Positions 1-951 of a stretch of DNA of 951 nt are shown here, in pieces. Position numbers and translations under genes: made by a program. Under the pieces are notes generated by a model, which saw nothing but the letters and a program-made list of their open reading frames with translations, made no database searches and was not told the origin of the DNA. The stretch is from Escherichia coli (lineage in GTDB: Bacteria; Pseudomonadota; Gammaproteobacteria; Enterobacterales; Enterobacteriaceae). Within the stretch, counting starts at the first letter, position 1; every line of letters begins with the position of its first letter. The stretch lies in assembly GCF_003334765.1 (NCBI RefSeq), contig NZ_QOWT01000092.1, one strand, 5' to 3'.

Positions 1-7
1 GAGTTTT

Positions 8-358
8 TTACAACATTGTCAGTGAGTTAAGGCGGGATGTTTTTGGCTGACGCCAGTCCAGCTTATCGAGGAGCATTGCCAGTTGCGAGCGGGTAATGGA
101 TATCTTACCGTCACGCACCGCAGGCCAGATAAACTGACCTTCCTCAAGGCGTTTGGTGAACAGGCACAGACCATCAGCATCAGCCCACAGGATTTTAATC
201 GTGTCTCCCCGTCGGCCACGGAAGATAAACAGGTGACCGGAGAAGGGGTTATCATCCAGCACATGCTGTATCTGCTCCCCCAGACCGTTGAAGGATTTAC
301 GCATATCAGTAACGCCGGCAACGAGCCAGATACGGGTACCTGATGGGAGTGAAATCAT
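8..358 (-). CDS. tnpB: IS66-family accessory protein TnpB (IS66 Orf2-like), 116 aa
   Basis: The ORF 8..358 translates to MISLPSGTRIWLVAGVTDMRKSFNGLGEQ...GHLFIFRGRRGDTIKILWADADGLCLFTKRLEEGQFIWP, recognised from memory as the conserved IS66 Orf2-like TnpB signature. Start ATG is the complement of 356..358 and stop TAA the complement of 8..10. A strong Shine-Dalgarno GGAGG (complement of 364..368) sits 5 nt upstream of the ATG. Confidence 0.9.
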   Translation of the reverse strand: MISLPSGTRIWLVAGVTDMRKSFNGLGEQIQHVLDDNPFSGHLFIFRGRRGDTIKILWADADGLCLFTKRLEEGQFIWPAVRDGKISITRSQLAMLLDKLDWRQPKTSRLNSLTML

Positions 359-789
359 CGTCCCCTCCCGGTCAGCTCACGGATCAACACCGTGAGCAGC
401 TCTGGTGAAGGATTTTCCAGCATCATTTTACCGTAATGGAATTCCACATGGCAGGAAGCTGCACAAGCAACTGATAATGCCTCCGGAGCAGGAGCATCTG
501 TAGCACAGCGCGGGGTGTCGATAAGTTCCACTGGAACCAGAGTCGGAGAGGCCGGAAAAGATTGTGATACTGTAGGGCCTACAATAGTTGGAGGCATTCT
601 ACGAGAAATACGTCCTTCTCTTTGCCAGAGGCGTAGCCATTTAAAAATCAGGTTGTTATCAACGCCATGTTCCCGGGCCAGTTGTGCAACATTGGCATTT
701 GGTTTCGAAGCCAGTTCAACCATATGAAGTTTAAATTCATTAGAAAATATCCGGCGGGTTCCGGAGCGCCAGTCTGTAGGTTTATCCAT
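355..789 (-). CDS. tnpA: IS66-family accessory protein TnpA (orfA, predicted helix-turn-helix DNA-binding protein), about 144 aa
   Basis: The translation MDKPTDWRSGTRRIFSNEFKLHMVELASKPNANVAQLAREHGVDNNLIFKWLRLWQREG has the N-terminal HTH-like region typical of IS66 TnpA. I place the start at the ATG that is the complement of 787..789, because GGAG (complement of 798..801) lies 8 nt upstream. The ORF track begins one codon earlier at a TTG (790..792), which leaves no spacer after the SD. Stop TGA is the complement of 355..357 and overlaps the tnpB ATG. Confidence 0.85.
   Translation of the reverse strand: MDKPTDWRSGTRRIFSNEFKLHMVELASKPNANVAQLAREHGVDNNLIFKWLRLWQREGRISRRMPPTIVGPTVSQSFPASPTLVPVELIDTPRCATDAPAPEALSVACAASCHVEFHYGKMMLENPSPELLTVLIRELTGRGR
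364..368 (-). promoter_or_regulatory. Shine-Dalgarno site for tnpB, embedded in the 3' end of tnpA
   Basis: Minus-strand GGAGG followed by a 5 nt spacer and then the tnpB ATG. Together with the ATGA overlap this suggests translational coupling. Confidence 0.55.
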
Positions 790-797
790 CAATAGAA

Positions 798-801
798 CTC
801 C
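798..801 (-). promoter_or_regulatory. Shine-Dalgarno site for tnpA
   Basis: Minus-strand GGAG followed by the 8 nt spacer TTCTATTG and then the ATG at 787..789. Confidence 0.55.
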
Positions 802-802
802 G

Positions 803-840
803 TCTAATTTAGAAGGAGCTCTAATTTAGTCTGCAAGGAG
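803..840. repeat. Direct repeat pair in the tnpA leader: tctaatttag at 803..812 and 820..829, each followed by aaggag (813..818 and 835..840)
   Basis: Seen directly in the sequence: a perfect 10 bp direct repeat with a 17 bp period, lying between the putative IS end and the tnpA ribosome-binding site. Confidence 0.6.
806..836 (-). promoter_or_regulatory. Tentative sigma70-like promoter for tnpA-tnpB
   Basis: Minus-strand TTGCAG (complement of 831..836) as a -35-like hexamer, followed after 18 to 19 bp by CTAAAT or TAAATT (complement of 806..812) as a weak -10. Matches to consensus are poor, so this is only a guess at where the IS promoter lies. Confidence 0.2.
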
Positions 841-848
841 CAGGTGTT

Positions 849-874
849 ACAGACGGCATTGGCTTTACGCTTAC
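849..874 (-). repeat. Putative left terminal inverted repeat (IRL) of the IS66-family element; exact length not determinable
   Basis: The minus strand reads GTAAGCGTAAAGCCAATGCCGTCTGT from 874 downward. IS66-family termini characteristically begin with GTAA, often GTAAGCG. The inner boundary is arbitrary because the right end is not available for comparison. Confidence 0.45.
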
Positions 875-951
875 CCATAGAGGCGGATATAAGGGGAATG
901 CCGGCAGAGCAGCGGCTTGCTGAACGTCAGCGAAAAACGAAACCGCTGTTG

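Follow-up and report, generated by a model that had tools for sequence, protein, structure and literature searches.

A probable ISEc43-group IS66 element cut by a window edge after tnpB in Escherichia coli, and the state of copies at the same junction

A 951-nucleotide stretch of contig NZ_QOWT01000092.1 from Escherichia coli assembly GCF_003334765.1 (the window, i.e. the whole stretch of DNA that was analysed) includes the genes tnpA and tnpB of an IS66-family insertion sequence (IS) and ends a few bases past tnpB. The question raised by this locus is whether the element continues to the left of base 1 with the transposase gene tnpC and a right inverted repeat (IRR), or is a truncated remnant. 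The comparisons described below indicate that the lack of tnpC is very probably an edge effect, the window holding the left 874 bp of a 2,541-bp ISEc43-group IS66 element that abuts a remnant of ISEc8 tnpC at 874/875. Bases 1..10 hold no biology beyond the end of tnpB and show nothing unusual.

The tnpA-tnpB module, the left end and the ISEc8 flank

The features of the window, with their coordinates and strand, are as follows.

1..7, minus strand: first 7 nt (AAAACTC) of the 30-nt tnpB-tnpC spacer, cut by the window edge
8..358, minus strand: tnpB, IS66-family accessory protein of 116 aa (ATG at 356..358, TAA stop at 8..10)
355..789, minus strand: tnpA, HTH accessory protein of 144 aa (from ATG at 789; alternative TTG at 792)
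790..874, minus strand: IS left end, including the terminal inverted repeat (IRL), outer end at 874, minus-strand sequence GTAAGCGTAAAGCCAATGCC...
875..951, plus strand: flank, an internal piece of ISEc8 tnpC (5'-truncated pseudogene) that is not part of the ISEc43-group element

The TAA stop of tnpB corresponds to TTA on the plus strand at 8..10, and only bases 1..7 (GAGTTTT; AAAACTC on the minus strand) are left beyond it. The exact coordinates of the ORF agree with an earlier note on this DNA, which had placed the stop at 8..10 of the minus strand and counted 7 remaining bp. The NCBIfam model NF033819 (IS66_TnpB, cut-off 50 bits) matched the window TnpB at 119.1 bits with E = 5.8e-35, and a protein identical to it carries Pfam PF05717. 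The possibility that tnpB is a chance ORF was ruled out by these two matches. The exact TnpB protein occurs in 300 blocks of a public protein collection. At the coordinates of tnpA, PGAP places the CDS WP_001309734.1; its product has PF01527 (HTH_Tnp_1), and the NCBIfam IS66 TnpA models gave 68 and 63 bits, under their cut-offs of 74 and 150.

The stop of tnpA overlaps the start of tnpB in ATGA at 355..358, giving the IS66-type gene order, and the IRL starts at window position 874 with the IS66-type tip GTAAGCG, reading GTAAGCGTAAAGCC... Both features back the assignment to the IS66 family made in the earlier note. An Rfam search of the window gave no match, and a scan of the window for promoters and terminators gave counts near the shuffle mean, at most ~1 standard deviation above it.

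Position 874 is the exact outer boundary of the element in ten copies with different genomic flanks. Here the flank beyond it is 99.1–99.6% identical to genes annotated as ISEc8 family transposase, and is annotated by PGAP as a pseudogene with the N-terminus missing. A GTG-started ORF of 161 aa, which covers 844..951 of the window and extends to position 7329 of locus L001, starts within the IRL and runs outward over the junction into what remains of ISEc8 tnpC. This ORF, or its 143-aa form with an ATG start, is called as a protein in >130 blocks of the public collection, while PGAP treats the region as a pseudogene. The 161-aa ORF is probably not functional, and it was used as an exact-match handle for the junction.

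Full-length copies and variants of the element

An exact look-up of the window TnpB gave ten loci, in all of which window positions 1..874 are reproduced at 100%. The full element is 2,541 bp in each of the ten copies, the window holding the left 874 bp of it (IRL, tnpA and tnpB), and nine of the ten are bordered by perfect 8-bp target duplications. In three element variants, the 30-nt spacer between the tnpB stop and tnpC is AAAACTCCTGACCGCATTATAAAAACGG(C/T)C and is followed by ATGAGTCAG...; in the ISEc47-type copy, counted here as the fourth variant, the spacer differs at several bases. The terminal 7 nt of the window are the normal spacer sequence of the full copies. In one example, tnpB ends at 10351 and tnpC occupies 10382..11995. 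The tnpC gene of the full copies encodes 537 aa with LZ, zf, DDE and DDE_C Pfam domains, and TnpC scored 448–452 bits on NF033517, for which the cut-off is 180. The right end of the copies reads ...GACGCTTAC, which is the complement of GTAAGCGTC, and their IRR is GTAAGCGTCAACGG... when read inward; the tips of IRL and IRR have GTAAGCGT-AA in common.

The full copies are in keeping with what the earlier note had expected of an IS66 element. Thus, tnpC follows tnpB, as a 537-aa gene 30 nt past the tnpB stop, and the right inverted repeat, predicted to end in the complement of GTAA, finishes in the complement of GTAAGCG. Placed in the frame of the window, the spacer would continue as CTGACCGCATTATAAAAACGG.., and the ATG of tnpC (ATGAGTCAGAAATACCTC...) and the end of the IRR would be expected 23 nt and ~1,667 nt, respectively, to the left of the first base of the window.

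In the IS66 family, TnpC is a DDE transposase that acts on GTAAGCG ends, and TnpA and TnpB are accessory proteins. By analogy with the family, tnpA, tnpB and tnpC would be read in series, tnpA and tnpB being coupled by the ATGA overlap and tnpC following past the 30-nt spacer. The 537-aa DDE transposase would then act on the GTAAGCG-tipped ends of the element and make the 8-bp target duplications.

The tnpA-tnpB module differs at 0–3 of 874 nt among four element variants (the elements of loci L003, L004, L021 and L024), which comprise an ISEc43 type, a close relative from a multi-copy genome, an ISEc47 type and a fourth type. Among the same variants, tnpC differs at 6–30 of 526 nt in the 5' segment, 0–43 of 500 in the middle and 0–97 of 440 in the 3' segment, i.e. 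by up to 22%. This mosaic pattern suggests that IS66 isoforms have recombined with one another. As the left module is nearly invariant, the window cannot fix the tnpC allele, and the ISEc43 label therefore rests on the shared junction.

At that junction, tnpC lies beside a region nearly identical to the window (1 mismatch) in strains 55989, 042, C227-11 and others, and is labelled there by PGAP as 'IS66-like element ISEc43 family transposase'. Published work (PMC6531882) reports 8-bp direct repeats for ISEc43, a named IS, and the 2,541-bp element described here likewise makes 8-bp duplications. The window differs from ISEc43 in that it holds the tnpA-tnpB module alone, which is common to the ISEc47-type and two other tnpC variants, and in that its TnpB has Ser112, whereas the junction-bearing copies compared base by base in complete genomes have Ala. 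ISEc47 is of equal length, has equal ends and shows 2–3 differences in the left 874 bp; in contrast, its tnpC is 89 of 440 nt off the ISEc43-type tnpC in the 3' segment, and its spacer starts AAAACGC instead of AAAACTC as in the window. Elements of the ISEc8/IS679 type, present in pathogenic E. coli, share the tnpA-tnpB-tnpC architecture, the GTAAGCG ends and the 8-bp duplications, but TnpC of the ISEc8 type has 512 aa as compared with 537 aa here. For IS679, Han et al. in 2001 are said to have found tnpA, tnpB and tnpC all to be needed. The element in the window is an already known insertion sequence.

Copies at the same junction and the ISEc45 insertion

The junction between the IS and the ISEc8 remnant is rare: of the 5,426 complete E. 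coli genomes searched, exactly 34 carry it. In every inspected locus that reaches that far, the junction adjoins pic, the gene for a serine-protease autotransporter of an enteroaggregative-E. coli-type island. In PLSDB plasmids, the IS part was found and the junction was absent. The states of the 34 copies were determined using a 3.2-kb query composed of the full element and both flanks, and representatives were checked against annotation.

The full element with an intact tnpC (WP_000080172.1, 'ISEc43 family transposase') and the IRR is present in 14 of the 34 genomes, which are mostly O104:H4 or closely related, such as C227-11 and FDAARGOS_403. A checked representative with the full element, FDAARGOS_348, has ISKpn26 82 bp outside the IRR, and the span lengths suggest ISKpn26 outside the IRR in four more genomes with the full element. 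In the other 20 genomes, tnpC is cut ~62 codons from its end by ISEc45, an element of the IS110 family with a length of ~1.43–1.45 kb, with ISEc45 inside tnpC in 15 and further loss in 5. The insertion point lies between ...GAAGAACACGTA and ATTTTTCTTTCC, ~188 nt before the tnpC stop and ~1.45 kb to the left of window base 1. Beyond ISEc45, E. coli 042 has the distal 215 bp and the IRR. BR1220 carries an extra IS3-family insertion in tnpA besides ISEc45 in tnpC, and 55989, H3, HSP425, UPEC69 and OZ547038 are cut at the ISEc45 site with the distal part gone. The stretch of tnpC between its start and the ISEc45 site is present in all 34 genomes. The cut gene encodes 475 native residues, or a fusion product of 522 aa, lacking PF13817, and a TnpC truncated in this way would presumably be inactive. 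Draft genomes and metagenome scaffolds showed the same mix of full and disrupted states.

The segment 875..882 of the window, CCATAGAG, occupies the position of a target duplication, if one existed. For the elements of locus L021 and E. coli 042 at the same junction, the sequence on the far side is TAATAGTC as compared with CCATAGAG, and there is no 8-bp duplication; hence one flank has been replaced since the insertion, probably by recombination or deletion in an IS-dense region. At L021, where no duplication is present at 7483..7490, two further IS66-type end scars, ...GGTTTACGCTTAC and ...GTTAACGCTTAC, lie just beyond the IRR, which indicates that the spot has been struck several times by IS66-family elements. 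Locus L008 has a full copy (9485..12025) that is inserted in an ISEc8 tnpC only 17 bp from the junction point of the window, faces the other way and lacks a target duplication. It was ruled out as the same insertion inverted, since the ISEc8 sequence (from 12043) starts 17 bp off the IRR and not at the IRR.

In E. coli 042 (L002), fragments of IS66 right ends lie at 770..989 and 2887..3101, and each is followed by an ISEc45 CDS, at 1049..2182 and 3166..4299, respectively.

In E. coli 042, two or more different IS66 right ends carry ISEc45 at the same point of tnpC. Among the 5,426 complete E. coli genomes searched, 875 have the ISEc45 left end, which is joined to the IS66 tnpC site in 858 of them with a junction identity of 84–100%. 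It is therefore likely that ISEc45 has a dedicated insertion site in one conserved sequence within the 3'-terminal ~62 codons of tnpC of the ISEc43/ISEc47 type, and it would thereby inactivate the IS66 lineage repeatedly and specifically, a proposal for which all of the evidence comes from sequence outside the window. IS110-family elements are site-specific, which the ISEc45 pattern fits, and ISEc45 is annotated as an RNA-guided transposase in some genomes. In a literature search, a dedicated tnpC target of ISEc45 was not found described, and ISEc43 and ISEc45 were found mentioned only in genome surveys.

The state of the copy in the window

The best matches to the window in complete genomes have one mismatch, at position 25, with A in the window and C in the genomes. 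A25 gives Ser112 in TnpB, the residue also present in the ten full copies located elsewhere, and C25 gives Ala112 in every junction-bearing locus of complete genomes that was compared base by base. The junction-bearing scaffolds with A25 (L014, L016 and L025) also have T at position 34, unlike the window. Thus, every junction-bearing locus examined is at least one base off the window, having C at 25 or T at 34, and the A25/G34 haplotype of the window is the consensus of intact copies elsewhere. Prediction of the state of the element from this SNP haplotype was considered and dropped because the signal is too weak: copies with a disrupted tnpC are found with C25 as well as with T34, the two derived backgrounds, and the haplotype therefore does not decide the state.

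A match to the window over 951/951 positions was not found in complete E. coli genomes or PLSDB plasmids. An exact 50-nt junction pattern had 0 matches in GTDB species-representative genomes, 0 in IMG/VR viral contigs and 5 in JGI metagenome contigs, none of the latter identical over the full window. Exact-protein look-ups with TnpB, the 161-aa junction ORF and its 143-aa form led to 28 places, none of them identical to the window. As none of the loci compared matches the full window, the sequence beyond its left edge is an extrapolation from relatives. In all public loci that contain the region of the window in full, tnpB is followed by the spacer and by tnpC over no fewer than its first 475 codons, and the DNA to the left of base 1 would almost certainly continue in the same way.

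It is very improbable that the element instead stops at or close to the window edge, be it as a truncated remnant that has lost all of tnpC or as a tnpC-less IS66 derivative. Rearranged and truncated versions of the element do exist, including an internal deletion that takes part of tnpB (L017), loci that retain only ~107–120 bp of the left end (L013 and L015) and a scrambled one (L039). However, all of these lack an intact tnpA-tnpB region, unlike the window, whose terminal 7 nt match the normal spacer and whose public relatives with the whole region all run into 475 or more codons of tnpC.

For an element that continues into tnpC, we lean slightly towards a defective copy, with ISEc45 in tnpC ~188 nt before the stop, a TnpC without its C-terminal domain, and mobility only with a transposase provided in trans. 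This reading is consistent with the disruption by ISEc45 or further deletion seen in 20 of the 34 complete junction genomes, and likewise in 6 of 10 places reached via the 161-aa junction ORF and in 5 of 8 reached via the 143-aa form. Moreover, the only junction-bearing loci with A25 (L014, L016 and L025) are all disrupted by ISEc45, and the 522-aa fused product lacks PF13817. On the other hand, these three loci have T34, which is absent from the window, and hence are not its source; tnpC is full-length at this junction in 14 complete genomes as well as in L021, L036 and L038; and a TnpC truncated by ISEc45 is only presumed to be inactive. The remaining reading is that the copy has all 2,541 bp, with tnpA, tnpB, tnpC and both ends intact and the potential for autonomous transposition, which is a serious possibility, if somewhat short of an even one. 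In several genomes, perfect 8-bp duplications border copies identical to positions 1..874 of the window, implying that such elements have been active recently; both tnpA and tnpB of the window are intact; tnpC and the IRR are intact in 14 of the 34 junction genomes; and A25/G34 is the consensus haplotype of intact copies. Nevertheless, completeness is the minority state at the junction, and no 8-bp duplication is seen at the full-element flanks compared, those of L021 and E. coli 042 (TAATAGTC as compared with CCATAGAG). Taken together, our estimate for the copy in the window assigns slightly over half of the weight to disruption by ISEc45, most of the rest to a complete element and very little to any other state, the intact and disrupted proportions coming from a sample heavy in O104:H4 outbreak genomes.

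The earlier note had stated that the integrity of the element depends on sequence outside the window. This caution was justified, as the same junction has 14 intact and 20 ISEc45-disrupted copies among 34. Its proposal to inspect 2 kb to the left would suffice for an uninterrupted copy (1,667 nt), but ~3.2 kb would be needed to reach the IRR if ISEc45 is inserted.

In itself, the finding matters little, being a routine annotation caveat on a named insertion sequence. Nothing about the activity of the element can be read from its left 874 bp, as genomes one base off the window carry complete, ISEc45-interrupted or further-deleted versions, and scoring IS66 copies as active from tnpA and tnpB alone would mislead. 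If the proposed targeting of tnpC is correct, the fate of an IS66 copy may be governed by a second element, ISEc45.
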